A stretch of 32,000 nucleotides of DNA from Planctomycetales bacterium (GCA_022646745.1 CP060262.1:2010001-2042000); one strand, 5' to 3'. Counted from the first letter of the stretch, positions 3,001 through 23,972 are shown. The notes: generated from the sequence alone by a model not told the origin. Program-made: numbers and translations.

Positions 3001-3692
3001 GTCGCGACCTCGACCTGCTGTTCGACCCGGCTGACAACATATCACCCTGGCTGTGCTTCCAGCGCGGCACCGCCACCACGGACAACCGGCTGACCCCGAC
3101 GGCCGGCACACTGCAGTTCTGGCGCGACCTCGGTAGCGGACTCATGGTGGAGGAAGTTGACAGCGGTGTAAACGCGCCGGACAGTGATGCCGGAAAGCGG
3201 GTGCGGATGGTGCTGGACGGCTCCAGCCAGCCGCTCTTGGCCTACTACGACCTGGACAGTGACCCGCTGCAGCCGCGCGGGCAGTTCAAGACCGCGCACT
3301 GGGATGGCAGCCAGTGGATTGTCAGCGTACTGGAGAACCGCGACCTGTCCTTCCAGGACCAGTTCACTTACAGCAATACCGCGCCTGAGCTTGACATCGT
3401 CAAATCCAGTTCAGGCGAGATTGCGATCGGGGAACTGCTGCGCCAGAACATGCCGGCCAGCGGGGACCAGCCGCACAGCGTCGGAGTCAGGGCCTGGATT
3501 GACAGCGGCTCCGGCTTTGAACTGGAAGTGCTGACCGAGCCAATATGGATGCTGCCCTCGGATCGGGAACCATGCGTGGCGATGTACGACGCCTCCGGCA
3601 TCCTGCACATCTTCGTGGCCACGGCCCAGGAACCACTGGAAGGTGAAGACTACAAGGCAGATACGATCCTGCACCTGTGGCGCGGGGAATAG
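1..3692 (+). CDS. Giant secreted multidomain protein, 5'-partial: cohesin-like module, two dockerin-type Ca-binding repeats, two FN3 domains, beta-propeller-like regions
   Basis: The track ORF is 135-3692, but the same frame (codons from nt 3) has no stop back to the window edge, so the gene is probably truncated. Dockerin-like repeats DYDNNGLVSISDITPIGLLF and DGDGNGEVNLADLTPIARNF lie at about nt 364-540. FN3-like segments include SYTLTYRRE...GSEYSFTLTASDESG and VTLSWDHAVDEHGEPVHYAVYYG...GTRYWFMVRAYD. Codon bias is GC3-rich. Confidence 0.8.
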   Translation, partial: GFQLDCSAATPDDIFLAISYDDDALQLDSALLTAEASDGNLILAVTRRIEDVTLVGITRTREHGTQRQAMTLADVRFRAGSERIWRDLSLVNEDPKSAVEMAVSSVDANSLTLEWDERNIGDYDNNGLVSISDITPIGLLFQQTLSSHDPPEEVVLVDGDGNGEVNLADLTPIARNFNRGITGFVVNRFEGLTDDPQDFEDVPQLLELRANVYGIASPAEKRQRLHYVASISKPPVQSLSLAVRAFDDDMNLGPFSNVVSLELLPDNLKPVFQDSFWSQNQVNGVLLHLPIAVDPEGEEVSYTLTYRRELDPAVTEFEDIPLSGETSHEYPLTGLVRGSEYSFTLTASDESGLENSIGESTQIPTFDPDLPDRWDNIGADQARTGSLIACKLHEPLFMDIELELEPGDTMRRNEVAFSSNDNLLYAKGEEKWHFIFKDGENSEVQRGIYGSGPFLPSLTQTFNSIYMLATDGQSAWRSRLPDLVYELEVENAGQPLMMGELMFIGRPDGSIHLQNYHGSEIVLSTSTGSPSLSISSDGDVVYQLCEDGTLRRFAQPFFEDVQGASLPLPQAGSSLVHLSSVDALAVALPDGNFTVRSATDLSEVHTSDAADGSSATCLAAVQWTDPPMLLLGESDSGNGRLRAVSMDDWSVLWDEPVQVETISASADRIFIRNSAELQVRDFEGRLRQSIPLAGNVNSQPVLDAQGLAAVHGSTLSFLRESPGDLPPVWQGTEGLRELTVGDGQVTLSWDHAVDEHGEPVHYAVYYGTAFPPDLDSLATSVVTDIPDDGTTTHEYVLDGLDNGTRYWFMVRAYDGWWDDSPNIELNLNWLAATPPWLSEELILGQDLPAGEVFYMRGIADPSGSLHLVYNDEATVKLTHLFGSTGNWQHESDGLAGWPSNAFDLSWDTDLLIGRANNFPPSLSLLTRTGADIYSETVVGGSDPLANPQLAIAVGTEYGMGFTEYISGTLPQVSGHYYYTVTSLGSFLPPIAVEEPLFNYGRDLDLLFDPADNISPWLCFQRGTATTDNRLTPTAGTLQFWRDLGSGLMVEEVDSGVNAPDSDAGKRVRMVLDGSSQPLLAYYDLDSDPLQPRGQFKTAHWDGSQWIVSVLENRDLSFQDQFTYSNTAPELDIVKSSSGEIAIGELLRQNMPASGDQPHSVGVRAWIDSGSGFELEVLTEPIWMLPSDREPCVAMYDASGILHIFVATAQEPLEGEDYKADTILHLWRGE

Positions 3693-3728: not shown

Positions 3729-3749
3729 CAGTGGTCAGTAGTCAGTAAG
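3729..3749. repeat. Degenerate heptamer tract CAGTGGT CAGTAGT CAGTAAG (GTGGTCA/TGACCAC family)
   Basis: Period-7 repeat read directly from the sequence. It is inverted relative to the tract at 3864-3891. Confidence 0.8.
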
Positions 3750-3787
3750 AGAAGCAGAATGAGAATGAGAAACAGAATCAGAAGCAG
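3750..3787. repeat. Degenerate hexamer tract (AGAAnn)x6: AGAAGC AGAATG AGAATG AGAAAC AGAATC AGAAGC
   Basis: Period-6 repeat read directly. A near-identical tract at 14140-14175 encodes, on the minus strand, the hydrophobic core of a lipoprotein signal peptide. Confidence 0.8.
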
Positions 3788-3863
3788 GTTGTCAGAAACT
3801 GGTAAAGAAGACAACTGACCGCTATCTGCGGCTTCTGTTTCTGCCAACTAATTCTCCTTCTGA

Positions 3864-3891
3864 CGACTGCCCACTGACCACTGACAACTAA
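3864..3891. repeat. Degenerate heptamer tract CGACTGC CCACTGA CCACTGA CAACTAA
   Basis: Period-7 repeat read directly. It is the reverse-complement family of the tract at 3729-3749. Confidence 0.75.
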
Positions 3892-4066: not shown

Positions 4067-5776
4067 CTAGTTCACATTGATCTCGACGATGTTGCTCACG
4101 CGCTTGGCGAGGTCGAAGATCGTCACGCTCTCGCCGGGGCTGAACTCCGCCACCACGCTCACCTGGTCGCCACTGGACAGGTCGGTCGTTGCCAGCGTGG
4201 CACTGCCGCTGTCGAAGCTGGACGTGCCGGCGTTGGCACCATCCGGGATCACCGCCCAGGCAGCCCAGTCGGTCAGGTCGACATCACGGGTGATGGTCTC
4301 CTGCACCGTGCCGCCGCCGTCGAGGATCTCCAGCTGGAACGTGCCCATCGCGCTGAACACCACGTCGTCACCGGCGTTCACGCTGATCGGTCCGGTGCCG
4401 CCGCCGCTCAGTTCGATGTTGATGTCCTCGATGCTCAGCAGCAGGAAGCTCACCTCGTCGAATTGCAGGTTGTTGCCCGGCGCATGTGCACGCACGGTCA
4501 CGAGCCCGCGGTTGCGGAAGCTAAGCTGGCCCTTCGTGCCGGCGCTGTCGCTGACGGCGGCGCTGTTGCCGCCGGTCGGAACGGTCCAGATCAGCTGCTC
4601 AGTGGCATCAAACGGGTTGCCCGGGTCGGCATCGCTCTCGGCGGTGGCCGTCAGGCCGAGCATCTCGGGGGCGAAGTCCTCGGCGTTGCCAAGCACCTCG
4701 TCAACGCTGGCCTCGGTGATGTACACGATCGAGCGGCTGCCATCCACCTCAAGTGTCGGGGAGGCCGGCAGGCTGATGTTCACGTTGCTCAGCACGGGGG
4801 CTGCGGTCACGGCCTGCAGGAACAGCACGTTCGTGCTGCGGCTGCCCAGCGCGCCCGCGTTGTCAAAGTACTGCACTGCGAAGAAGGTGTCCTCCTCCAG
4901 CACATCGCCGACCCAGTTCCAGGTCAGCAGGCCGTCGGTGGTCTTCGGGCTCGGGAACTCATCGGCGCGGTTGACACGCACAAGCTCCGTCAGGCTGCCC
5001 TCACTGGCGCCGCTCAGGATCGCGTAGCCGGCCAGCCCGGTGCCGAGGTTGATGCCCAGCGGGGTCAGGTCGGAGATGGTCACGCTGCCATTGCGGTCGT
5101 AGTCGGCCTTGTCCGCCTGGCTGCCGGGGGTCACGCCCGTCGTGTTGAGCGAGATGCCCAGCGGGGTCAGGTCGGACAGGGTCACGAGCCCGTTGTTGTC
5201 ACCGTCGCCGGAGTTGATCTCTGGCCAGCTGATTTCCGGCTGGCCGGTGTTCTCACTCACGCTGCCCGCGATCTCGAATGCATTCGCGGCACCGGTCGGG
5301 GCCTTGGCGATGCTGCGTGCCAGCTGCTCGCTGCCCTCGCTGAAGCTCACCCGCGCGATCGCCTGGCGGCCGTCCAGGCCGGGGCGCACATCGAAATTCG
5401 CCAGCACCATGCCGAAGTTCAATCCATCCTCCAGCGGCTTGGCGAGGAACAGGGTGTCATCGCCGCTGGCCGTAAGCTGGGCCGACTCGAAGCTGTACTG
5501 CGAGCGGTCATAGCTCACCACGCCGTAAAGCGCCTTGGTGTCCTGCATCCCGCTGGCCACGATGTCGAAGCTGTACTGTCCGGCCGGTCCCGCTGCGGGC
5601 ACAAGCTCCAGGCTGACCGAACCGGCCGCGATGCTGTTATCGCGGTCCAGGCTGGCCGAGAAATCGCTCCCGCCGGCGTTGCTTCCCGCCGTGCCGCCGC
5701 CGCAGGACGCAGCGAGGCTGAGGGTCATCAGGGCCAGCAGGCTGGCCAGCAGCTTAATGCTCTTCATAAAAGGCAT
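4067..5776 (-). CDS. Secreted lipoprotein with a cohesin-like module and two dockerin-type repeats
   Basis: The N-terminus MPFMKSIKLLASLLALMTLSLAASCGGG contains a lipobox (LAAS-C). Dockerin-like repeats GDGDNNGLVTLSDLTPLGISL and DYDRNGSVTISDLTPLGINL lie at about nt 5043-5212. The start could instead be the MKSIKLL Met at 5767. The 605-aa plus-strand ORF opposite is Arg/Ala/His-rich antisense noise. Confidence 0.85.
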   Translation of the reverse strand: MPFMKSIKLLASLLALMTLSLAASCGGGTAGSNAGGSDFSASLDRDNSIAAGSVSLELVPAAGPAGQYSFDIVASGMQDTKALYGVVSYDRSQYSFESAQLTASGDDTLFLAKPLEDGLNFGMVLANFDVRPGLDGRQAIARVSFSEGSEQLARSIAKAPTGAANAFEIAGSVSENTGQPEISWPEINSGDGDNNGLVTLSDLTPLGISLNTTGVTPGSQADKADYDRNGSVTISDLTPLGINLGTGLAGYAILSGASEGSLTELVRVNRADEFPSPKTTDGLLTWNWVGDVLEEDTFFAVQYFDNAGALGSRSTNVLFLQAVTAAPVLSNVNISLPASPTLEVDGSRSIVYITEASVDEVLGNAEDFAPEMLGLTATAESDADPGNPFDATEQLIWTVPTGGNSAAVSDSAGTKGQLSFRNRGLVTVRAHAPGNNLQFDEVSFLLLSIEDINIELSGGGTGPISVNAGDDVVFSAMGTFQLEILDGGGTVQETITRDVDLTDWAAWAVIPDGANAGTSSFDSGSATLATTDLSSGDQVSVVAEFSPGESVTIFDLAKRVSNIVEINVN

Positions 5777-5865: not shown

Positions 5866-7266
5866 TTACTGACCCGTCCCGCCGCTGCGCTGTTCCCGCC
5901 ACTGTGTGCCCTTGCGGCCCTCCAGCGCTGCGTCACCCGTCAGCCTCCGGTAGCAGTCCAGCACCGCGTCCACCGCCCGCTGCGCAGCCCCGCGGTTGCG
6001 CAGGGTCAGCTCCCTGGCCCGCTGCCCGATGCGAATGCGCGCGTCCACGTCCTCCATCAGCGCTGCCAGCCGGCCCGGGGCCTGCCCGGCCTCCGCCTCC
6101 ACCACTGCATCGGAGCGCCTCAGCATCTCCATCTGCGAGGTGATGCCGAAGGTATGCGGCCCGACCAGCACCGGCTTGCCCAGCACCGTGGCCTCGAGGA
6201 TGTTGTGCCCGCCCACCTTCTTGTTGTACGTGCCGCCCATCACCACCACGTCGGCGAAGCGGTACATGTCCACCAGCACGCCGTAGCGGTCCACCAGCAG
6301 CACATCCCAGCCTGGCGCTGGCTTGCCACCACTGCCGGACTTCGCCTTCTTCGACTTGCCCTTGCCGGCCTTGCCCTTCGCAGGCGCAGGCGCCACATCC
6401 GCCAGCTTCACGCATTTCAGCTTGTTGCGCTCGCACAGCTTCTGCACTTCATCCACGCGCTCGATATGGCGCGGCGCGAGGATCAGCCGGGCCCCAGGGC
6501 TGTCCAGGCGCACCTGCGCCAGGCAGTCCAGCACCACTTCCTCCTCGCCGGGATGCGTGCTGCCGGCCGTGATCACCGGCTCGTCCCCCAGCCCGATCGC
6601 CGCGCGCTCGGTGGCCATCCGGCTTTCGCCCCAGTCCTCCAGCTCGAAGTCGAACTTGATGTTGCCGCTCGAAACCAGCTTCTCCGGCGGGATCGCGAAC
6701 TTGATGTAGTTCAGCCAGTGCGTCTTGTCCTGCGTCACGATCAGGTCGCACAGCTCAATCAGCTGCTGCAGGATCACCTTGCGCATGCCGGTCTTGTTGT
6801 GCAGGTACAGCCGCCCGTTCACGAGGCAGACCGGGATCCCGCGCTCGCGGCAGAGCGCTTGGATGTTCGGCCACAGCTCGGCTTCGGTGGTGATGTACAG
6901 GTCGGGGCGCAGCTTGTCGAGGTAGCGCGTCACGGCGCTTGGATGGTCCACCAGCGGGAACCAGGCGACGTATTCCACGAGGCCCGCGAGCTTGCCTTGC
7001 GCCATGGTGCGCCCGCTTTGCGTGGTGGTCAGGAGCACGATGTTGCATTCACCGATCGCCTGGCGCAGCTCACGGATGAAAGACGAGATCGCCACCACCT
7101 CGCCGGCGCTCACCGCATTGATCAGCACGTTCATACCGGGCAGGCTCGGGTCGTAGCCCTCCGGTTCGAAGTAGCCGCGCCGCGCCGCTATCGTGCCGCG
7201 AAAGGGCGGGTAGAGGTACAGGAGCGGCCAGAAGATGCGGACCAGCAGGTTGTAGATGGACAGCAC
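5866..7266 (-). CDS. waaA: 3-deoxy-D-manno-octulosonic acid (Kdo) transferase
   Basis: Blocks match my recollection of E. coli WaaA: LINAVSAGE (cf. HSVSVGE), TTEAELWPN (cf. METELWPN), GSTHPGEEE (cf. TSTHEGEE), LILAPRHIER, and GGHNILEATVLGKPVLVGPHTF (cf. GGHNPLEAAAHAIPVLMGPHTF). The start codon is GTG. Confidence 0.88.
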   Translation of the reverse strand: MLSIYNLLVRIFWPLLYLYPPFRGTIAARRGYFEPEGYDPSLPGMNVLINAVSAGEVVAISSFIRELRQAIGECNIVLLTTTQSGRTMAQGKLAGLVEYVAWFPLVDHPSAVTRYLDKLRPDLYITTEAELWPNIQALCRERGIPVCLVNGRLYLHNKTGMRKVILQQLIELCDLIVTQDKTHWLNYIKFAIPPEKLVSSGNIKFDFELEDWGESRMATERAAIGLGDEPVITAGSTHPGEEEVVLDCLAQVRLDSPGARLILAPRHIERVDEVQKLCERNKLKCVKLADVAPAPAKGKAGKGKSKKAKSGSGGKPAPGWDVLLVDRYGVLVDMYRFADVVVMGGTYNKKVGGHNILEATVLGKPVLVGPHTFGITSQMEMLRRSDAVVEAEAGQAPGRLAALMEDVDARIRIGQRARELTLRNRGAAQRAVDAVLDCYRRLTGDAALEGRKGTQWREQRSGGTGQ

Positions 7267-7272
7267 GGGCTG

Positions 7273-7278
7273 ATTATA
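7273..7278 (-). promoter_or_regulatory. -10-like TATAAT 6 nt upstream of the waaA GTG start (possible leaderless mRNA)
   Basis: The minus strand reads TATAAT-cagccc-GTG. No Shine-Dalgarno sequence is present. Confidence 0.4.
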
Positions 7279-7334
7279 GTGGTGAGTGGTCGGTGGTCAG
7301 TGGTCAGCGGGTTTCGGGTTGCGGGTTTCGGAAT
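7279..7334. repeat. Heptamer tracts: GTGGTGA GTGGTCG GTGGTCA GTGGTCA, then GCGGGTT TCGGGTT GCGGGTT TCGGAAT
   Basis: Strict period 7 read directly. The first half is inverted relative to 7994-8035, and the second half is the reverse complement of the family at 14509-14546. Confidence 0.85.
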
Positions 7335-7343
7335 CACATATTT

Positions 7344-7371
7344 GGGTAGCGGTGGCGCCCTGCGCCAATTG
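7344..7371 (+). repeat. REP element (GTAG + GGCGC-cct-GCGCC hairpin), plus orientation
   Basis: Read directly. GTAG is at 7346-7349. Confidence 0.75.
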
Positions 7372-7416
7372 ATAGTGCATGATGCGAAATTTACAAATAT
7401 GTGATATATTTGCAAT

Positions 7417-7905
7417 ATGTTGCCATTGCAGCCAAAGCTGATGCGTAAGTCCGATCACAACTACCGTACTCCGGGCTACTACTTCATCACGCTGAAGACC
7501 GCTGGCTCACGGAACCTGTTTGGCAGGTATGAAAGTGGCAATGATGTAATCCTGTCACGCTTCGGAAGGATTGCCCTTGAGTGCTGGCACCGTAATGATG
7601 AGGTGTACCAGACCGTAAGCAATGATCTGTATCGCTTCATGCCCAATCACATGCACGCCTTGCTTATGCTGGAATTTGGCGAGAGCACACGGGATGCGGG
7701 AGTACACCTGAGCAAGGTCGTGACATCCTACAAGGGTGTTGTCACAAAGGAAATCCGCAGGTTGACGGGGAATGCGGATATGCAGGTCTGGCAACGGAAC
7801 TACTACGAACGGATAGTCACATCGGAAAGGGCCCTGCAGAACATCCGCAGCTACATTCTCTACAATCCGCTGATGATTGAACTGGAAGGCAAGGGTCTGC
7901 GCTGA
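7417..7905 (+). CDS. rayT: REP-associated tyrosine transposase (RAYT, IS200/IS605 TnpA-like Y1 HUH enzyme)
   Basis: The protein is 162 aa with an HUH motif MPNHMHALL (nt 7648-7656 = H-M-H). It has a C-terminal catalytic-Tyr region WQRNYYERIV and ends in the YILYNPL motif typical of this family. MRKSDHNY at 7441 is an alternative start. Confidence 0.85.
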   Translation: MLPLQPKLMRKSDHNYRTPGYYFITLKTAGSRNLFGRYESGNDVILSRFGRIALECWHRNDEVYQTVSNDLYRFMPNHMHALLMLEFGESTRDAGVHLSKVVTSYKGVVTKEIRRLTGNADMQVWQRNYYERIVTSERALQNIRSYILYNPLMIELEGKGLR

Positions 7906-7947
7906 TTGCCTGAATCCTCAGTCGAGGTAGCCTGGTGCATCCACTCC

Positions 7948-7975
7948 CAGTTGGCGCAAGGCGCCACCGCTACCC
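7948..7975 (-). repeat. REP element, minus orientation (inverted partner of 7344-7371)
   Basis: The plus strand reads CAGTTGGCGCAAGGCGCCACCGCTACCC. CTAC is at 7970-7973. Confidence 0.75.
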
Positions 7976-7993
7976 TGACCCTTGCACCGTTTC

Positions 7994-8035
7994 CATCTGA
8001 CCACTGACCACAGACCACTGACTACTTCCCACTGA
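7994..8035. repeat. Heptamer tract CATCTGA CCACTGA CCACAGA CCACTGA CTACTTC CCACTGA
   Basis: Period 7 read directly. It supplies the last codons (..MVSGK) and the TAG stop (8022-8024) of the anti-sigma-like ORF. Confidence 0.85.
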
Positions 8036-8735
8036 CCATGCTCGCCTTCTTCATGTAGTCCTTCTCGCGGCCGATCAGCGTGATGTCGCTCGGGTTCACC
8101 GCGCCCTTGTCCAGCCACTGCGTCTCCTGCCAGGCGCGCACCACGTTGCGCTCGATCGCGCTCTTGTCCCCCATCCGGTAGGCGATCATGTCGCGCACCT
8201 TCACGCGGTAGGGGATCAGCGGCTGGTCGTAGCTGTAGTAGCAGTCCTGCATCCACTCCTCGCGCTCCATCACGCTGCGGAACCAGCTGTTGGCCTCGGA
8301 GTAGTCCACCCCGATGATGCCGAGCTGCATGGTGTAGCGGCCGTACTCGTTCTCGTAGTAGTCCACCACGAGGCTGTGCCCGCCGTGCTCCGCGAGCTCC
8401 GGGGTGTACTTCGAGATGATGCCCAGCACATGCGGGTAGTTCACCGGCTGGAAGTCCGCCGGCAGCTGGATGTTGATCTGCTGCGCGTCGTCGTAGGGGG
8501 CCAGCGTGAGCGTCGAGCTCCAGGCGCCGACCGCCGCCAGCGCCATCACCAGCACCGCCAGCCTGAAGCCGAGGCGCATGCTGCCCTGCGGACGGCGGCG
8601 CGGCTCCTGCTTCAGCATGTTCTCCAGGTGCAGACGGCTGATCTGCGGGTCGACTTCCTTCTCCAGGCGCTCGAACACGCCGAAGATCAGCTTCTCGGCC
8701 TCGCTCTGGGGGTTCTTATTGAACTCGTTATTCAT
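8022..8735 (-). CDS. Single-pass membrane protein co-transcribed with the ECF sigma factor (putative anti-sigma factor)
   Basis: Its start overlaps the sigma gene stop by 8 nt. It has a cytoplasmic N-terminus, one TM helix (LGFRLAVLVMALAAVGAW) and an extracytoplasmic domain of about 150 aa. No canonical HxxxCxxC zinc motif is present. Confidence 0.6.
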   Translation of the reverse strand: MNNEFNKNPQSEAEKLIFGVFERLEKEVDPQISRLHLENMLKQEPRRRPQGSMRLGFRLAVLVMALAAVGAWSSTLTLAPYDDAQQINIQLPADFQPVNYPHVLGIISKYTPELAEHGGHSLVVDYYENEYGRYTMQLGIIGVDYSEANSWFRSVMEREEWMQDCYYSYDQPLIPYRVKVRDMIAYRMGDKSAIERNVVRAWQETQWLDKGAVNPSDITLIGREKDYMKKASMVSGK

Positions 8736-9402: not shown

Positions 9403-9509
9403 CAGGGACCTGGGACCTGGGATCAGCAGGTAGCAGGTGCCTGGGTTCAGTAGGGATCAGGTCTCAGGGCGCTTGTATTCGATCCCTGGTCCCCGGTCCC
9501 CGGTACCTG
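9403..9509. repeat. Heptamer tracts of the GGGACCT/AGGTCCC family forming inverted arms
   Basis: The left arm is CAGGGAC CTGGGAC CTGGGAT CAGCAGG TAGCAGG and onward (9403-9470). The right arm is ATCCCTG GTCCCCG GTCCCCG GTACCTG (9482-9509). The arms are imperfect reverse complements. Confidence 0.8.
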
Positions 9510-9551
9510 ATTATAAGGTGCTGGGAGGGGGGAGGCAAGGGGGAAATAGAT

Positions 9552-9579
9552 TTGACAAATGATGTGCTACACTTAGCTT
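9552..9579 (+). promoter_or_regulatory. Candidate sigma70-type promoter for the island gene (TTGACA-N16-TAGCTT)
   Basis: TTGACA at 9552-9557 is a perfect -35 and TAGCTT at 9574-9579 is a weak -10. TATAAG at 9610-9615, 5 nt before the ATG, is an alternative -10. In AT-rich DNA such matches arise by chance. Confidence 0.3.
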
Positions 9580-9620
9580 TTCTCAGCTCGTTATGAATCC
9601 AAGATTACATATAAGATGCC

Positions 9621-12600
9621 ATGAAGTTAACTGATCTTTACACTTTCAATAAGTTTTCAATAAAAGAAGCTGGTCCAAAGTATAGTCCGGGTATAGCTGA
9701 AGGTGCGCCAAATATTGAGATAAACGAGCTTGTAGAATTCTTAGACGCACTCTGTCTAAATGAAAATTTTAAACTAGCATTTAAAACAATTAATAATGAA
9801 CTAACAAATATATCAATTTATCATAGTAGAATCGTAAATGGTCTGTTCTTAAATAACAAGCATACACCAGCAACACTATCTAAATCACTTAGTAAGGTAA
9901 TACAAAGCAGAACAACAGAAAATCTAGAAGCAGAATTATCTCACGCTAAGAGGGCATACACTTTCATATCTAGAAAAATTTCCAATAGACTAAAAGCGGT
10001 AAGGAAAATAGCAAGAGAAAGAGAGCCTAACAACACTAGAGACTCCGAGTATGAAAGATTACAATCGGAAATAAGTGCTTTGAGAGAATACTCCCTAGTT
10101 TCAAACAAACTCAAAGTGTTTTTCGCCGGTGACTATGAACAAGTCATTTTTGCTCAAAACCATATTCTCTTGACAGGAGAATGGGGAACTGGAAAAACTC
10201 ACTTCTTATGCGATATGGCCTTGCGGTATGAAAAGCTTGGGTTACCGGTGTTGCTAGTGTTAGCAAACAACCTAAAAACAGTTAATGATCCCTTTGCTGA
10301 AATTTCAAATCTAGTGAAGATAGAAAAAAATTCTTCAGCTTTCCTAAAGAATTTGAATAAGATTGCAAAGCAGAAGAAAGTTAGAGCCTTGATTTTGCTT
10401 GACGCAATAAATGAGAGCGATAGAAAATACTGGCATCGAAACATGAAATTTATCATCAATACTTTGAAGGCGTACAAAAATCTGCGCCTGGTAGTTTCTT
10501 GTAGAACTCCGTTTGAGGAGCAGATAATTAATCAAAGCACTCAAAGAAAGTTTACAAAGATTAATCATATGGGATTTCAAGATAATGAGTTCAACGCGCA
10601 GATTGAATTCTTCAAACACTATGAAATTCCTCTGTCCTTTGTGCCATTACTTGTTCCGGAGTTTACTAAACCACTTACATTGAAAATGTTGTGTGAAGAC
10701 CTGAAAGATTACTCTACACCTTGGCAAAAGAGAAAATTAAAAATTCTCATTTCAGGGCAGAGAGGAATGACTACAATTTTGGAGAATTATATTGTCAAGA
10801 AGGGTGGAGAAATAGAAAAGAAATTCAGTCTGCCTACAAAATCATGTTGGTTCTTTATTAAAGGAAAGGGCAGCAATTTGGATCTATGTATAGCTGCGAG
10901 GATGGCATCGCAGTCGAAGAGTTGGCTAAAAAGAGATGAAGTGCAACAAATTGCTCAGCAATTTTTTGCGTTCAATAACGATGAATCATCTGCATTTGTT
11001 GCATCACTAATTGAGGGGGGCATTCTAAAAGAAGAGCTCAAATGGGAACCGAATAAATTCGTTGAGGCAATAACGTTTCCATATCAAAGATTTGGTGATC
11101 ATATAATTGCTAGACATCTTATGAACAATTATTTGAATTTAGAATCAGATATTCATATCAGCAGAAGTTTTTATCGAAATCGAGTCTTAGGCAAATTGTT
11201 TTATAGTGAATTCAATAATTATAGTGTTTCAGAGCCAGGACTAATAACTGCAATAATGCTAGAATTACCTGAGAGATTAAAGAAAAGAAAAGGAAAGTCC
11301 GAGCTATTTGCGTTTTTGCCTAAGGACGTTTTGAGGAGAAAAAATGCATTACTAAATCAGTTATTTATAAGTGGTTTGTCTTGGAGAAGCACAGACGCGA
11401 TCACTGAAGAAACTGAAGATAAAATACATATTTTGTTGAAAACCGATGATACATACATAAAGAACTTATGCTTTACAACATTAGTTGGTTTGTGTTTAAG
11501 AGTTAATCACAAACTATCTTCTAAATGGTTGTGGGACTATCTTATTAATTTATCAATGCAAGATCGAGATCTACTATGGTCAGAATTCTTGAGAGATTAC
11601 CAGGGTGTTGAGTCTATAGAGCAGGTGTTTAGTTGGTGTGAAATTAAGAAACATGAATTTGACAAAGAAACTGTACTGCTATTAGTCAATGTCCTATCGC
11701 TGGTATTAACCAGCTCAAACCGACATTTAAGAGATGCTGCCACTAAACAAATCGTTTTGCTAGGCGATCATCAGCCTGAAGTGATTTTTGGTCATATTCT
11801 CAAGTGCATTGAAGTTGAGGATGTTTATATCAGCGAGCGCATGATTGCGGCTGGATATGGAATAGCCATGAGGTGGTGGGGAAAAGCTGATAACCAATCG
11901 CTACGCAAACAGATTTGCAATCTTGCAATCAGTATTGTAGATAGGGTTTTTAGTGACGATTGTGAAAAGAGTGTTTTGCATTCACTTGTATGTAGTTACT
12001 CACGTGGTTTGATAAACATTGCTGCTCAAATTGATCCTTCTTCATTAGAAATTCAAACTCGAGTAATTGATTCTCAAACAAATTCAACTCTATGCTCACC
12101 TTTCCCAAAGAGGAGTAGTATTAGAAATAATATCGAGGAAGTAGTAAGTGATGCAATTCGCATGGATTTTGCTAACTATACTCTTGGTAAACTTGTTCCA
12201 GATCGACGAAATTATGATTTTAGTGACAATAGGTATATTGGATTAAAAAAACAGATTGCCAAGAGGATGCGTGATTTAGGTTATGATCGAGAGATTTTTC
12301 AGTCAATAGATGATGAAATAGGGAGATTTCATACCGGGTACTATCAAGATGAAAAACCGTCTCGAATAGATCGATATGGAAAAAAGTATTCTTGGATTAC
12401 CTACTATGAAATGTTTGAAGTGCTTCATCGGCAGGATCGCTTAGGTTTAGATGAACTGCAATTAACAGATCTCGATATTGATCCGAGTTTTCCTGATGTG
12501 CCTATTTCTTGGATGCCTAAGTTGCAAGTGTATCGCGACGATGGTATTAAGAAAAAGAATGAATGGTTAGTGCGCGGCAAAAGTCCATTCCATACTAATT

Positions 12601-13334
12601 TGTTGTGCAAGCAAATTGTTGACAATTACAGGGGGCCTTGGATATTGTTAGATGCATTCATTGATTTGGATGGAGATGCTAAGCGAAATACAATTTCATT
12701 TATTAATACAATATTGGTTGGCAAGGAAAGTAGGGATACTGTAATTTGTGGATTGTTGAAGAGAGATTATTTGGGAAATGGTTCAATCACTGTAGATGAT
12801 GATGACCACTATGTTTTCGCAGGAGAGGTTCCTTGGTCCACCAAGTTTGCAAGTCATTTGCGTGATGCAAGTGGCGGTGCTATTAGAAAGACTAAAGAAT
12901 TACGTTTTGATCACAATGATCAAAACGTAATTCACGTTGATGTTCCAGTGCACTCGGTAAACTGGGAAGACTATCACAGTTCCGTTAGTACAGGTAGATC
13001 ATACACTACATTAGCCCCACATCTTTCTCAGCTTTTGGATCTCCATTCAGTCAAGGGATCTATAGATTTGTTTGATAGAAAAAATGATTTAGCAACAATC
13101 TATAGAGTGTTTAAATGTAGTGATGATGATTATTTTTATAATCATTTGCTATATGTCAGATCTGATTTGCTGTCGCGATATTTAAATGCAATCAACAGAA
13201 GTTTACTTTGGGTGGTTTGGGGTGAAAGAAGAGTACTTGATGATGATTCCAGATATAATCACTTGATTGCCGAAACATACAGAAGTAACTTGAACAATTT
13301 TTCCAGGTGCTATGAACTCTACTTTAGGTCATAA
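9621..13334 (+). CDS. Large STAND-class (NACHT-like) P-loop NTPase with uncharacterised N- and C-terminal regions
   Basis: This 1237-aa ORF is the only long ORF in the island. The Walker A is GEWGTGKT (nt 10176-10199) and the Walker B is RALILLDAINESD (10383-10421). A sensor-1-like motif LRLVVSCRTP (10482-10511) is followed by MGFQDNEFNAQIEFFKHY. A HEAT-like helical region includes NRHLRDAATKQIVLLGDHQPE. Codon usage is AT3-rich, unlike all neighbouring genes. Confidence 0.9.
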   Translation: MKLTDLYTFNKFSIKEAGPKYSPGIAEGAPNIEINELVEFLDALCLNENFKLAFKTINNELTNISIYHSRIVNGLFLNNKHTPATLSKSLSKVIQSRTTENLEAELSHAKRAYTFISRKISNRLKAVRKIAREREPNNTRDSEYERLQSEISALREYSLVSNKLKVFFAGDYEQVIFAQNHILLTGEWGTGKTHFLCDMALRYEKLGLPVLLVLANNLKTVNDPFAEISNLVKIEKNSSAFLKNLNKIAKQKKVRALILLDAINESDRKYWHRNMKFIINTLKAYKNLRLVVSCRTPFEEQIINQSTQRKFTKINHMGFQDNEFNAQIEFFKHYEIPLSFVPLLVPEFTKPLTLKMLCEDLKDYSTPWQKRKLKILISGQRGMTTILENYIVKKGGEIEKKFSLPTKSCWFFIKGKGSNLDLCIAARMASQSKSWLKRDEVQQIAQQFFAFNNDESSAFVASLIEGGILKEELKWEPNKFVEAITFPYQRFGDHIIARHLMNNYLNLESDIHISRSFYRNRVLGKLFYSEFNNYSVSEPGLITAIMLELPERLKKRKGKSELFAFLPKDVLRRKNALLNQLFISGLSWRSTDAITEETEDKIHILLKTDDTYIKNLCFTTLVGLCLRVNHKLSSKWLWDYLINLSMQDRDLLWSEFLRDYQGVESIEQVFSWCEIKKHEFDKETVLLLVNVLSLVLTSSNRHLRDAATKQIVLLGDHQPEVIFGHILKCIEVEDVYISERMIAAGYGIAMRWWGKADNQSLRKQICNLAISIVDRVFSDDCEKSVLHSLVCSYSRGLINIAAQIDPSSLEIQTRVIDSQTNSTLCSPFPKRSSIRNNIEEVVSDAIRMDFANYTLGKLVPDRRNYDFSDNRYIGLKKQIAKRMRDLGYDREIFQSIDDEIGRFHTGYYQDEKPSRIDRYGKKYSWITYYEMFEVLHRQDRLGLDELQLTDLDIDPSFPDVPISWMPKLQVYRDDGIKKKNEWLVRGKSPFHTNLLCKQIVDNYRGPWILLDAFIDLDGDAKRNTISFINTILVGKESRDTVICGLLKRDYLGNGSITVDDDDHYVFAGEVPWSTKFASHLRDASGGAIRKTKELRFDHNDQNVIHVDVPVHSVNWEDYHSSVSTGRSYTTLAPHLSQLLDLHSVKGSIDLFDRKNDLATIYRVFKCSDDDYFYNHLLYVRSDLLSRYLNAINRSLLWVVWGERRVLDDDSRYNHLIAETYRSNLNNFSRCYELYFRS

Positions 13335-13502: not shown

Positions 13503-14222
13503 TCACTCCCCACCGCCATTCGGCGGTTCAATCACCAGCACTGCGGCGCTTGTATTGAAGTCCTGGTAGCTGGCGCGGGCCACATACGTTCCCACCTCGT
13601 CGGGCAGCTGCCAGTTGATTTCAGTGCCGCTTTGCACCGTCAATGATATGACCGCATTGCCGCCACTGTCAAGCAGTGTGCCCGACTCAACCGTGACGCG
13701 GATATCCGGTGGCACAAGCGTGGTGGATGCCCCGCGCCAGGCCCCCGGCAGGGGAATCAGGTAGGGTGTGGCCGTGGCATGCGCTGTATCGGTCGGCGAC
13801 TGGACGTCGTTCGGCGACTGGACGTCGGTCGGCGGCAGGGGTGCCGCCGCTACACTGAGGTGTTCTCCACTGCACCCAGCAACCAGCAACCTGCAAGCAG
13901 TCGGCGACTGGAAGTCGCCGCTACAGTTCCCCGGTCCTAGATCCCTGCCTGCGGTCCCCGGTCCCTGGTCCCCGGTCCCTGCAACGCAGCTTGCAGCCGC
14001 CGATGTCGAGCTGGTCTGCGCGCGTGGGGTGATCGTCACGATGCTGCCGCGCACCGCCGTGGTTGGTGCTTCGAGGATGATGCCGGTCACCGTCACCGGG
14101 TTGGAGGATGCCCCGCCGCCACCGCATGAAGAAGCTGGCAGAAGCAGAAACAGAATGAGAAACAGAAGCAGCAGGGAGGTGAGACAGCGATGAGAGCCTT
14201 GTCTGTTGAGCTTGATGCGCAT
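13503..14222 (-). CDS. Small Ig-like (Big_2-like) lipoprotein interrupted in frame by a REP/short-repeat cluster
   Basis: The track ORF extends to 14282, but the likely start is MRIKLNRQGSHRCLTSLLLLFLILFLLLPASSCGGGG at 14222, with lipobox PASS-C. Beta-rich flanks are VTVTGIILEAPTTAVRGSIVTITPRA and IRVTVESG...GTYVARASYQDFNTSAAVLVIE. The middle ~65 codons (13793-13982) consist of repeat DNA. Confidence 0.6.
   Translation of the reverse strand: MRIKLNRQGSHRCLTSLLLLFLILFLLLPASSCGGGGASSNPVTVTGIILEAPTTAVRGSIVTITPRAQTSSTSAAASCVAGTGDQGPGTAGRDLGPGNCSGDFQSPTACRLLVAGCSGEHLSVAAAPLPPTDVQSPNDVQSPTDTAHATATPYLIPLPGAWRGASTTLVPPDIRVTVESGTLLDSGGNAVISLTVQSGTEINWQLPDEVGTYVARASYQDFNTSAAVLVIEPPNGGGE
13793..13982. 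repeat. Composite repeat cluster: 18-bp direct repeat x2, two GTAG-hairpin REPs (minus orientation) and a GGTCCCC-family heptamer tract
   Basis: TCGGCGACTGGACGTCG(T/G) occurs at 13793-13810 and 13811-13828. One REP, GGCGGCAGGGGTGCCGCCGCTAC, is at 13831-13853. A REP variant, GGCGACTGGAAGTCGCCGCTAC, is at 13903-13924. Heptamers occupy 13927-13982. Confidence 0.8.
14140..14175. repeat. Hexamer tract AGAAGC AGAAAC AGAATG AGAAAC AGAAGC AGCAGG, the second copy of the family seen at 3750-3787
   Basis: Read directly. Its reverse complement encodes LLLLFLILFLLL of the lipoprotein signal peptide. Confidence 0.8.
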
Positions 14223-14284
14223 GGAGGGATGATAACTCATCCAGGGTGCAGGTTGCTGGTTGCAGGGGGCAGGAAAAGTCACTT

Positions 14285-14476: not shown

Positions 14477-14480
14477 GCCC

Positions 14481-14571
14481 GGCGGCAAGGGTGCCGCCGC
14501 TACGCGCTCCGGATACCGAAACCGGAAACCCGAAACCGGAAACCGGTCGGCGGCAAGGGTGCCGCCGCTAC
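14481..14571 (-). repeat. BIME-like cluster: REP, then a CCGAAAC-family heptamer tract, then a second REP
   Basis: GGCGGCAAGGGTGCCGCCGCTAC occurs at 14481-14503 and again at 14549-14571. CCGGATA CCGAAAC CGGAAAC CCGAAAC CGGAAAC lies at 14509-14546. The second REP's CTAC provides the TAG stop of the radical SAM ORF. Confidence 0.8.
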
Positions 14572-23398: not shown

Positions 23399-23577
23399 GA
23401 TCAGGTGGCATGCCGCCGCTGAGTCACTGTGTTCACTGTTGTCATCCTTTCGGATGGCCGCCCGGCGGCGTGGGCGCCGCCGCTACTGATTACTTTATCC
23501 AGACTCCCCACTCCAAACACCAAACTTCCCAGGATCAGGTGGCAGCATGCCGCCGCTAAGTCACTGTGTTCATTGGT
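23399..23577. repeat. Two ~42-bp direct repeats (GATCAGGTGGCA(GC)ATGCCGCCGCT(G/A)AGTCACTGTGTTCA) 134 bp apart, enclosing one GTAG-hairpin REP
   Basis: The copies start at 23399 and 23533. The REP GGCGGCGTGGGCGCCGCCGCTAC lies at 23464-23486 in minus orientation. Confidence 0.75.
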
Positions 23578-23682: not shown

Positions 23683-23972
23683 GTAACTTCCGCGCGACCC
23701 CGCCTGCGGCGGGACTTCGCCTTCGACTCAGCCCGTAACTTCAACCCGACCCGGACACGCGAATGCGTTGCCGCAGGGTCAGACCCGCGAGTGCTTGCAC
23801 GAGCGGGTAGGAAATCATGTAACTTCAGCGCGATCCCGCCTGCGGCGGGACTTCGCCTTCGACTCAGCCCGTAACTTCAACCCGACCCGGACACGCGAAT
23901 GCGTGGCCGCAGGGTCAGACCCGCGAGTGCTTGCACGAGCGGGCACTAAACTTAAGTAACTTCCGCGCGACC
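23683..23972. repeat. 136-bp tandem repeat: two nearly identical copies plus the start of a third
   Basis: Copies start at 23683, 23819 and 23956. Copies 1 and 2 differ at 3 positions over about 124 bp and then diverge in the last ~12 nt. Each copy contains the hairpins CCCGCC-tgc-GGCGGG and CCCGC-ga-GTGC-tt-GCAC-ga-GCGGG. Confidence 0.85.

Follow-up and report, generated by a model that had tools for sequence, protein, structure and literature searches.

REPtrons, in which a gene for a REP-associated tyrosine transposase (RAYT) is accompanied by repetitive extragenic palindromic (REP) sequences, have been characterised in E. coli, Stenotrophomonas and Marinomonas. Two signatures are specific to RAYTs, namely an N-terminal Thr and the motif NP(L/V)(R/K)xG after the Tyr (Nunvar 2010, PMC2817692), and genome-wide over-representation of the flanking 16-mer has served as another RAYT criterion (Bertels 2017, PMC5581495). 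The so-called 'group 3' REPs of Stenotrophomonas maltophilia and Marinomonas are built from GTAG and a perfect palindrome of 8 bp with a short loop (PMC8266576), and the name 'TIRYT' has been given to RAYT genes that have long terminal inverted repeats at their flanks (TIRs; Di Nocera et al. 2013, PMC3733652). Heptamers repeated in tandem, which among long simple repeats are the most frequent in bacteria (Mrazek 2007, as cited in PMC4679880), have been described as intergenic TAACTGA arrays, frequently located just 5' of start codons, in Beggiatoaceae, Cyanobacteria and Bacteroidetes (MacGregor 2015, PMC4679880). Here we describe a stretch of 32,000 nucleotides from a Planctomycetales bacterium (GCA_022646745.1, CP060262.1:2010001-2042000), referred to below as the window, in which a RAYT-like gene lies between two inverted GTAG-tagged hairpins and this cassette is in turn enclosed by tracts of tandem heptamers.

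The RAYT-like gene and its flanking repeats

Positions 7344-7975 very likely constitute a REPtron, that is, a single-copy gene for a RAYT/TnpA_REP-like HUH Y1 protein placed between two inverted GTAG-hairpin repeats. Support for the original prediction of a REP/RAYT arrangement comes from profile matches, the predicted fold, conserved catalytic residues, the inverted flanks, further GTAGCGG REPs both in the window and in relatives, a single fixed locus and strong purifying selection that acts on the gene and the flanking REPs alike, and we are dealing with a REP/RAYT cassette of known kind in a little-studied uncultured lineage.

The 162-aa protein carries both motifs of Y1 transposases that had been predicted for it, PNHMHALL with the HUH residues H78-M-H80 and WQRNYYERIV with the Tyr pair Y129/Y130; to judge from shorter orthologues, M9 (7441) is a possible alternative start. 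It matches the PF01797 (Y1_Tnp) profile with 24.8 bits, above the cutoff of 23, and its top NCBIfam match by far is NF047646 REP_Tyr_transpos (E 1.5e-15, 57.4 bits). In an alignment of 30 homologues, R10, Y16, Y22, P76-N77-H78, H80, K106, W125-Q126, N128-Y129-Y130 and Y146 are invariant, and so is T25 in GYYFITLKT, which is the RAYT-specific N-terminal Thr. A search of the Protein Data Bank (PDB) with the single protein (phmmer) returned nothing, and a family profile was needed: built from the 30 homologues, it found E. coli TnpA_REP (4ER8) as the best match (E 4e-7), before ISDra2 TnpA. Foldseek with the AlphaFold model (predicted local distance difference test score, pLDDT, 86) gave IS608 TnpA, 4ER8 and ISDra2 at E ~1e-6, with the first two on top. 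Judged from the model and the alignment, the protein appears to have an intact HUH/Tyr active site and a TnpA_REP-like fold. Its close homologues are few (86%, 81%, 65% and 53% identity), and the next ones reach at most 38% over most of the query.

The repeats that bracket the gene had been described as inverted 28-mers with two mismatches. An inverted pair with two differences is indeed present, its length being 27 nt: GGTAGCGGTGGCGCCCTGCGCCAATTG at 7345-7371 (+) is inverted with respect to GGTAGCGGTGGCGCCTTGCGCCAACTG at 7948-7974 (-), and no such pair arose in 100 shuffles. Both consist, as proposed, of GTAG and a short GC hairpin, laid out as GTAG, a 3-nt spacer (CGG), a 6-bp stem TGGCGC/GCGCCA and a 3-nt loop, and the inverted repeat reaches 38 nt with 87% complementarity (7344-7381 / 7938-7975). 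The AT-rich region between the left repeat and the gene is presumed to be the promoter/operator, and similar ATATGT-rich sequence also precedes the RAYT gene at two related loci, L011 and L013. Around the left REP there is, in addition, a perfect 12-nt inverted repeat, ATCACATATTTG / CAAATATGTGAT (7333-7344, 7394-7405), the inner arm of which falls in the conserved upstream region, the outer one being absent in the orthologous locus L135.

Five further REPs are dispersed in the window, all on the minus strand (GTAG positions 13853, 13924, 14503, 14571 and 23486), and in each of them GTAG directly abuts a perfect 8-bp stem with a 3-4-nt loop. Their hairpins are significantly stable (z -2.3 to -4.7). 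The first 16 nt (GTAGCGGYGGCRCCCT) are common to flanking and dispersed REPs; within the 32 kb, the exact flank variant occurs twice and the related GTAGCGG type five times. GTAGC+hairpin repeats flank each of the RAYT orthologues (80%, 82%, 65% and 53% identity); they are inverted also in L135, L147 and L013, and they differ in their stems, which are GGCGCAAT / ATTGCGCC in L013, and of the GGTCCGGC and GGTGCCGC types in L011, where seven copies lie within 600 bp of the gene. As the stems differ while the repeats remain at the RAYT orthologues, it is the structure and the GTAGCGG tag that are conserved, and not the stem sequence.

As to residence of the cassette, the identical protein is found on 17 metagenome contigs, in one context throughout, and the window holds a single copy of the gene. 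Among syntenic loci, which were retrieved through homologues of the neighbouring 237-aa open reading frame (ORF), L134 and L135 (neighbour ORF 82% identical) bear the cassette at the same site and in the same orientation. The L135 gene is 79.8% identical to that of the window in protein and 76% in DNA; dS of the RAYT gene is 1.2-1.5 and dN/dS 0.07-0.09 (~1.4 and 0.09 between the window and L135). The REP blocks of these two loci share 93% (left core) and 97% (right, 37/38 nt) of their nucleotides, versus 76% for the coding sequence, 52% for the spacer from stop codon to REP and 54-61%, with many gaps, for the heptamer tracts. The outer GGTAGC of each flank marks the precise limit of conservation, in L135 as well as in L147, the latter holding an 82% RAYT orthologue with the same right REP block in an unrelated gene context. 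That the REP blocks of orthologous cassettes in three relatives remain 93-97% identical although synonymous sites of the gene are saturated (dS ~1.4) suggests that they are constrained more strongly than these sites, and the conserved entity seems to be the REP-gene-REP unit, apparently inherited stably at this locus. Long residence at a single fixed locus, vertical inheritance and purifying selection argue for a domesticated gene rather than for a proliferating insertion sequence (IS).

Two contigs (L001 and L002), ~99.9% identical to the window elsewhere, show 10 substitutions in 47 nt at 7890-7936, a stretch that begins with the final codons of the RAYT gene, where 2 are synonymous, and ends shortly before the right REP. 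Conversion or recombination could have produced this patch, and so could a strain-chimeric assembly.

Heptamer tracts and other features of the window

The original prediction also placed the cassette inside inverted heptamer tracts. Both tracts are present and mutually inverted, with coordinates slightly corrected (Table 1); their consensus units match without mismatches, and the 57-nt arms are complementary at 74%. When the cassette is deleted in silico, the arms fold to one long hairpin (minimum free energy -60 kcal/mol, z -6.1). The tracts at 7278-7331 and 7997-8038 are intergenic arrays of tandem 7-nt units, and the cassette is not. What found no support was the proposed link between this enclosure and the REP machinery, because inverted pairs occur free of any RAYT, the pair stands alone in L132, inverted tracts enclose another gene in L131, and the cassettes of L135 and L147 have no matched inverted pair around them.

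Such tracts are, in fact, a genome-wide class of fast-evolving intergenic repeats of short period (6-8 nt), usually arranged as inverted pairs. Of the 18 period-6-8 arrays in the window, 17 are intergenic, at ~15% of the sequence being intergenic (P ~1e-13), and in four tract-rich intergenic regions the tracts fill ~30% of the length, as estimated from their coordinates. Their unit families are many, including GTGGTCA, GCAGAA, GGGACCT and GCAACCA. Among same-family arrays within 900 nt of each other, counted in the window and eight related loci (nine sequences in all), 13 pairs are inverted versus 3 direct. The regions of inverted pairs fold to long hairpins with z of -5.5 to -7.7, although these scores come from mononucleotide shuffles and are thus somewhat optimistic for low-complexity sequence. 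Pairs with neither REPs nor RAYT occur at 3729-3889 and 9405-9504 and at the empty site of L132, and tract pairs look like a genome-wide architectural feature in which no RAYT is involved.

Comparison of the orthologous sites is decisive in this respect. L132 (neighbour 64% identical) belongs to the same metagenome-assembled genome (MAG) as L011, whose RAYT sits at that other locus; its syntenic site has no RAYT, and shows ~24 AGTCAGT/GATCAGT units, directly after which come four inverted units of ACTGAYM and TATAAT. Here the tract pair thus exists without the cassette. In L131 (neighbour 83% identical), inverted GAAGTGG / CCACTTC arms enclose a 120-aa gene of the 23S_rRNA_IVP family (E 1.8e-33). 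In L135, GGAGTGA units occur on one side only, without a matched inverted arm, and in L147 one side bears GGTTCTA and the other a complete palindrome, AGCAATG / CATTGCT. Enclosure of a RAYT cassette by matched tracts is, on this comparison, peculiar to the present genome, and the nesting is real but incidental.

The tract unit at the orthologous site is GGTCAGT in the window (8022-8040), GAAGTGG in L131 (6700-6840), GGAGTGA in L135 (1255-1300) and AGTCAGT/GATCAGT in L132 (1955-2200). The 237-aa ORF ends in …ATG GTC AGT GGG AAG TAG, a conserved run of last codons, which contains the heptamers GGTCAGT and GGGAAGT, and we infer from this likeness that the units at the site may be expansions of one or the other, which would point to local replication slippage, rather than to a transposase, as the source of the tracts. 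Although 500-700 bp lie between them, the proximal and distal arms match in L131 and in the window. L131 (GCA_041395205.1) also has small accessory genes between tract arrays (6921-7283, 10607-11578), like the RAYT cassette here: the 23S_rRNA_IVP-family gene, and an 88-aa ORF with a HicA toxin gene.

One may speculate that inverted tract pairs are maintained hairpin or cruciform elements with co-evolving arms, the apices of which would preferentially receive small cassettes of a single-strand-targeting or accessory kind. Units that differ between species while the arms stay complementary would speak for co-evolution, and the presence of a RAYT cassette here and in L135, and of the 23S_rRNA_IVP gene in L131, for target choice rather than chance; we nevertheless find this scenario rather unlikely. 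In a weaker variant of it, nicking by the RAYT at CT/CA beside the hairpins might promote tract expansion.

Table 1. Features of the cassette, its surroundings and the repeats discussed in the text (positions in the window unless a related locus is named).
Feature	Position	Strand	Remarks
waaA-like glycosyltransferase gene	5866-7266	-	PF04413
Heptamer tract AGTGGTC x4.3, left arm	7278-7307	+	not conserved in L135; ends 12 nt upstream of waaA-like start (7266)
Heptamer tract CGGGTTT x3.4	7308-7331	+	same unit family, other orientation, at 14509-14546
Left flanking REP block	7344-7381	+	GTAG 7346-7349, spacer CGG, stem TGGCGC 7353-7358 / GCGCCA 7362-7367, loop CCT
AT-rich region upstream of RAYT gene	7382-7416	+	partly conserved (TATCACATATTTGTAAAT ... 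GCAATATGTTGCC); 79% identical to L135
Gene for RAYT-like Y1 transposase (HUH + Tyr), 162 aa	7417-7905	+	PF01797, NF047646, fold, invariant residues
Right flanking REP block	7938-7975	-	GTAG 7973-7970, stem 7966-7961 / 7957-7952, loop CTT, conserved extension CAACTGGGAGTGGATG
Heptamer tract CTGACCA x6, right arm	7997-8038	+	begins within last five codons of 237-aa ORF
237-aa ORF	8022-8735	-	follows gene for sigma factor of extracytoplasmic function (ECF) type
Dispersed REP	13830-13853	-	GTAG + CGGCGGCA-cccc-TGCCGCCG; single-stranded DNA (ssDNA) hairpin -11.5 kcal/mol, z -4.4
Dispersed REP variant	13902-13924	-	GTAG + CGGCGACT-tcc-AGTCGCCG; -10.7 kcal/mol, z -4.7
Dispersed REP	14480-14503	-	GTAG + CGGCGGCA-ccct-TGCCGCCG; -15 kcal/mol, z -3.3
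Dispersed REP	14548-14571	-	stem as in 14480-14503 copy; 68 nt away, direct orientation, CCGGAAA tract between
Dispersed REP variant	23463-23486	-	GTAG + hairpin, CGGCGGCG-ccca-CGCCGCCG
Inverted tract pair	3729-3787 / 3833-3889		
Inverted tract pair	9405-9422 / 9483-9504		
Inverted tract pair	13872-13900 / 14242-14266		
Inverted tract pair, L011	3148 / 3210		span 3142-3228
Inverted tract pair, L103	66 / 227		span 66-264
Inverted tract pairs, L131	11395 / 11535, 11450 / 11504		span 11395-11578
Inverted tract pair, L132	5366 / 5527		span 5366-5557
Inverted tract pair, L132			span 2030-2231

The region of the cassette (7230-8060) lies between two minus-strand genes, and GC falls from ~0.65-0.66 in the neighbouring genes to ~0.50 within it. 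A Pfam search with the 237-aa ORF gave no match, nor did an Rfam search of the window, and a search for terminator-like sites around the cassette found none. TATAAT stands 6-7 nt 5' of the waaA-like start codon at all four orthologous loci (window 7273-7300 on the minus strand, L132 2200-2245, L131 7420-7440, L135 1960-1980), a closeness that suggests a leaderless transcript; in the sole promoter-like match there in the window, the -35 hexamer (CTGACC) comes from the heptamer tract.

REPs and tracts stand together in several places. Two REP-tract-REP modules, 13830-13924 with a GCAACCA tract and 14480-14571 with a CCGGAAA tract, have their REPs in direct orientation, 68-71 nt apart, and in L103 (6340-6440) a REP has a CTGACCA tract on one side and one of CTGCTT on the other. 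Beside REPs of the window there is a 136-bp unit, tandem 2.1 times (92% matches, 23683-23972), without an Rfam match; a related motif (aacttcagcccgacccg) recurs by a REP doublet in a MAG labelled UBP7 (L084 2830-3060). Another small repeat, cacagtgacT(C/T)AGCGGCGGCATGC(TG)CCACCTGATC, is present in two copies (23404-23422 and 23536-23559, minus strand), with a REP-like core tagged TCAG/TTAG, not GTAG.

A degenerate REP pattern was used to scan genome contigs, the matches listed being mostly chance single ones in GC-rich genomes, with the UBP7 loci L084 and L103 as the useful yield among them. Gut and rumen MAGs labelled Clostridia/Clostridiales also gave, among the matches listed, GTAGCGGYGGCRCC…GCSSCM on multiple contigs each (L020, L076, L079, L096, L106 and L122 of JAZSAA01; L032, L040, L109 and L117 of RUG14340; L035 and L054 of RUG340), and could possess their own GTAG-REP family of a similar sort.

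Farther along, a low-GC island (9550-13334; GC 0.30-0.40, 0.31 at third codon positions) is occupied by a 1237-aa ORF (9621-13334) with weak AAA_22/NACHT/nSTAND3 P-loop matches. Its sequence indicates that it is probably a horizontally acquired NTPase gene of the STAND (signal transduction ATPases with numerous domains) type, and possibly a defence gene. The ORF at 13503-14282 (minus strand) was rejected as a real gene, as it has no Pfam match and runs through repeat tracts.

Proposed mechanism and alternative explanations

By analogy with REPtrons characterised in E. coli, Stenotrophomonas and Marinomonas (PMC3479197, PMC8266576), the RAYT protein would bind the folded REP hairpin and its 5' GTAG on ssDNA, its tyrosine would cleave at a CT/CA dinucleotide near the hairpin and then rejoin the strands, and this strand transfer might spread or maintain GTAGCGG+hairpin REPs in this and related genomes. 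The cassette has its place between the two arms of a tract pair, in the intergenic region of the 237-aa ORF and the waaA-like gene.

Several observations do not sit easily with a canonical REPtron. The score of the protein against NF047646 lies below the curated cutoff of 80 bits. Of the C-terminal RAYT signature only NPL is left (NPLMIE), where the wider subfamily carries NPxxW, and GC of the gene (0.52) is far under the ~0.65 of its neighbours. The flank hairpin alone is weak as ssDNA (~-7 kcal/mol, z ~-1.4), not better than shuffles; with its 6-bp stem and 3-nt spacer, it is unlike the dispersed REPs, and the exact variant is confined in the window to the RAYT flanks. Besides, the cassettes of L147, L011 and L013 stand in other contexts, so that occasional movement of the whole cassette is possible. 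The C-terminal motif and the short-stem flanking REP are the departures from the canonical RAYT family.

Some of these facts would suit an autonomous or recently mobile IS200/IS605-like element, in which the inverted repeats are simply the ends and no domesticated RAYT is involved. The base composition (gene GC 0.46-0.52 in hosts of 0.59-0.65) could be taken in this sense, and so could the 82%, 65% and 53% cassettes in unrelated neighbourhoods, with conservation ending at the outer GTAG as movement of a whole unit would leave it. However, a single locus in 17 contigs and synteny in a second species at dS ~1.4 imply long vertical residence; NF033573 transpos_IS200 gives 14 bits versus a cutoff of 55 (E 0.044); the flanks are inverted GTAG-REPs and not the asymmetric same-strand left-end and right-end hairpins of IS200/IS605; no tnpB was found among the ORFs adjacent to the gene; and no close homologues were found on plasmids. 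The cassette does not, on these grounds, belong to the IS200/IS605 insertion sequences, and we consider recent mobility improbable. It is more difficult to dispose of the idea that the flanks are private, 'TIRYT'-like TIRs, the dispersed GGCGGCA-stem REPs being served by another RAYT or by none. Flank and dispersed variants differ in stem, stem length and spacing between GTAG and stem; in the window, L135 and L147 the flank variant is found only at RAYT flanks; a metagenome scan with the flank-variant core gave 12 loci, with the cassette in L147 only; the conserved inverted repeat, at 38-43 nt, is longer than a REP; and RAYT genes with long TIRs are known (Di Nocera et al., PMC3733652). Nevertheless, both variants share their first 16 nt, L084 (a related MAG, UBP7 HKST-UBA03) has two inverted copies of the exact flank variant, separated by 150 bp that include no RAYT, the only case seen of this variant away from a RAYT, and the mixture of two stem types among the seven REPs around the L011 gene indicates that stem variation is tolerated in the clade. 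The UBP7 HKST-UBA03 MAG also has a REP of the dispersed type (L103). Private TIRs thus seem doubtful to us.

The remaining alternative, raised by the original prediction, is that the heptamer tracts, too, are mobilised or seeded by the RAYT, which would make the nesting functional. REPs and tracts are often adjacent (13830-13924, 14480-14571 and the tract-REP-tract arrangement of L103), and CTGACCA units are rich in CT/CA, known cleavage sites of TnpA_REP (PMC8266576). Yet tracts fill so much of the tract-rich intergenic regions that chance would be expected to place the two side by side, tract pairs are found where there are neither REPs nor a RAYT, the orthologous site has different units in different species but nearly invariant REPs, and the resemblance of the units to the 3'-end heptamers of the neighbouring ORF favours slippage. 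As heptamer arrays have, moreover, been described from lineages and settings that have nothing to do with REPs (PMC4679880), a role of the RAYT in making the tracts appears very improbable. A REPtron, enclosed by tracts of other origin, remains our preferred reading.

What the locus offers is an extension of REP/RAYT biology, already well documented elsewhere, to an uncultured lineage whose MAGs bear the labels Planctomycetales / UBP7 / 4484-113, and a clean comparative example of flanking REPs that are better conserved across species than the transposase gene itself, which argues that gene-proximal REPs are functional sites. Its chief use in practice is negative, in that annotations of the REPtron should leave out the heptamer tracts. 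Tract palindromes form a separate phenomenon and are the more curious feature, being abundant, hairpin-forming, quick in turnover and located at gene starts and ends, and their effects on promoters, terminators and mRNA stability may merit a study of their own.

Comparison with known REPtrons and heptamer arrays

The E. coli REPtron (TnpA_REP/RayT with REP/BIME, bacterial interspersed mosaic elements; 4ER8, 'group 2') resembles the present one in its small HUH/Tyr protein, which is the best PDB match to the family profile, in its single-copy gene, in inverted flanking REPs with a 5' GTAG tag and, presumably, in recognition of ssDNA hairpins. The two proteins share ~15% identity in the structural alignment. 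E. coli TnpA_REP requires a bulge in the stem (PMC8266576), whereas REPs described here have perfect stems; the present protein, unlike that of E. coli, has NP(L/V)(R/K)xG truncated, and its host belongs to an uncultured lineage. In geometry the dispersed REPs (GTAG, 8 bp, 3-4-nt loop) are like those of 'group 3', but the RAYT-flanking ones, with a 6-bp stem 3 nt from GTAG, are not. With 'TIRYT' elements the flanks have in common that they exceed a REP in length and may be low-copy, but unlike them they hold a GTAG-hairpin related to the dispersed REPs of the genome.

The tracts are similar to TAACTGA-type arrays in being tandem heptamers, intergenic only and often directly upstream of start codons, and NNACTGA is common to both (CCACTGA here). 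Cyanobacterial short tandemly repeated repetitive (STRR) sequences are intergenic heptamer arrays as well. The BOGUAY genome contains 169 direct sets and one indirect repeat only (PMC4679880). Unlike TAACTGA-type arrays, the tracts described here comprise many unit families per genome, typically form inverted pairs that fold to long hairpins, and change their units between species at the same locus.

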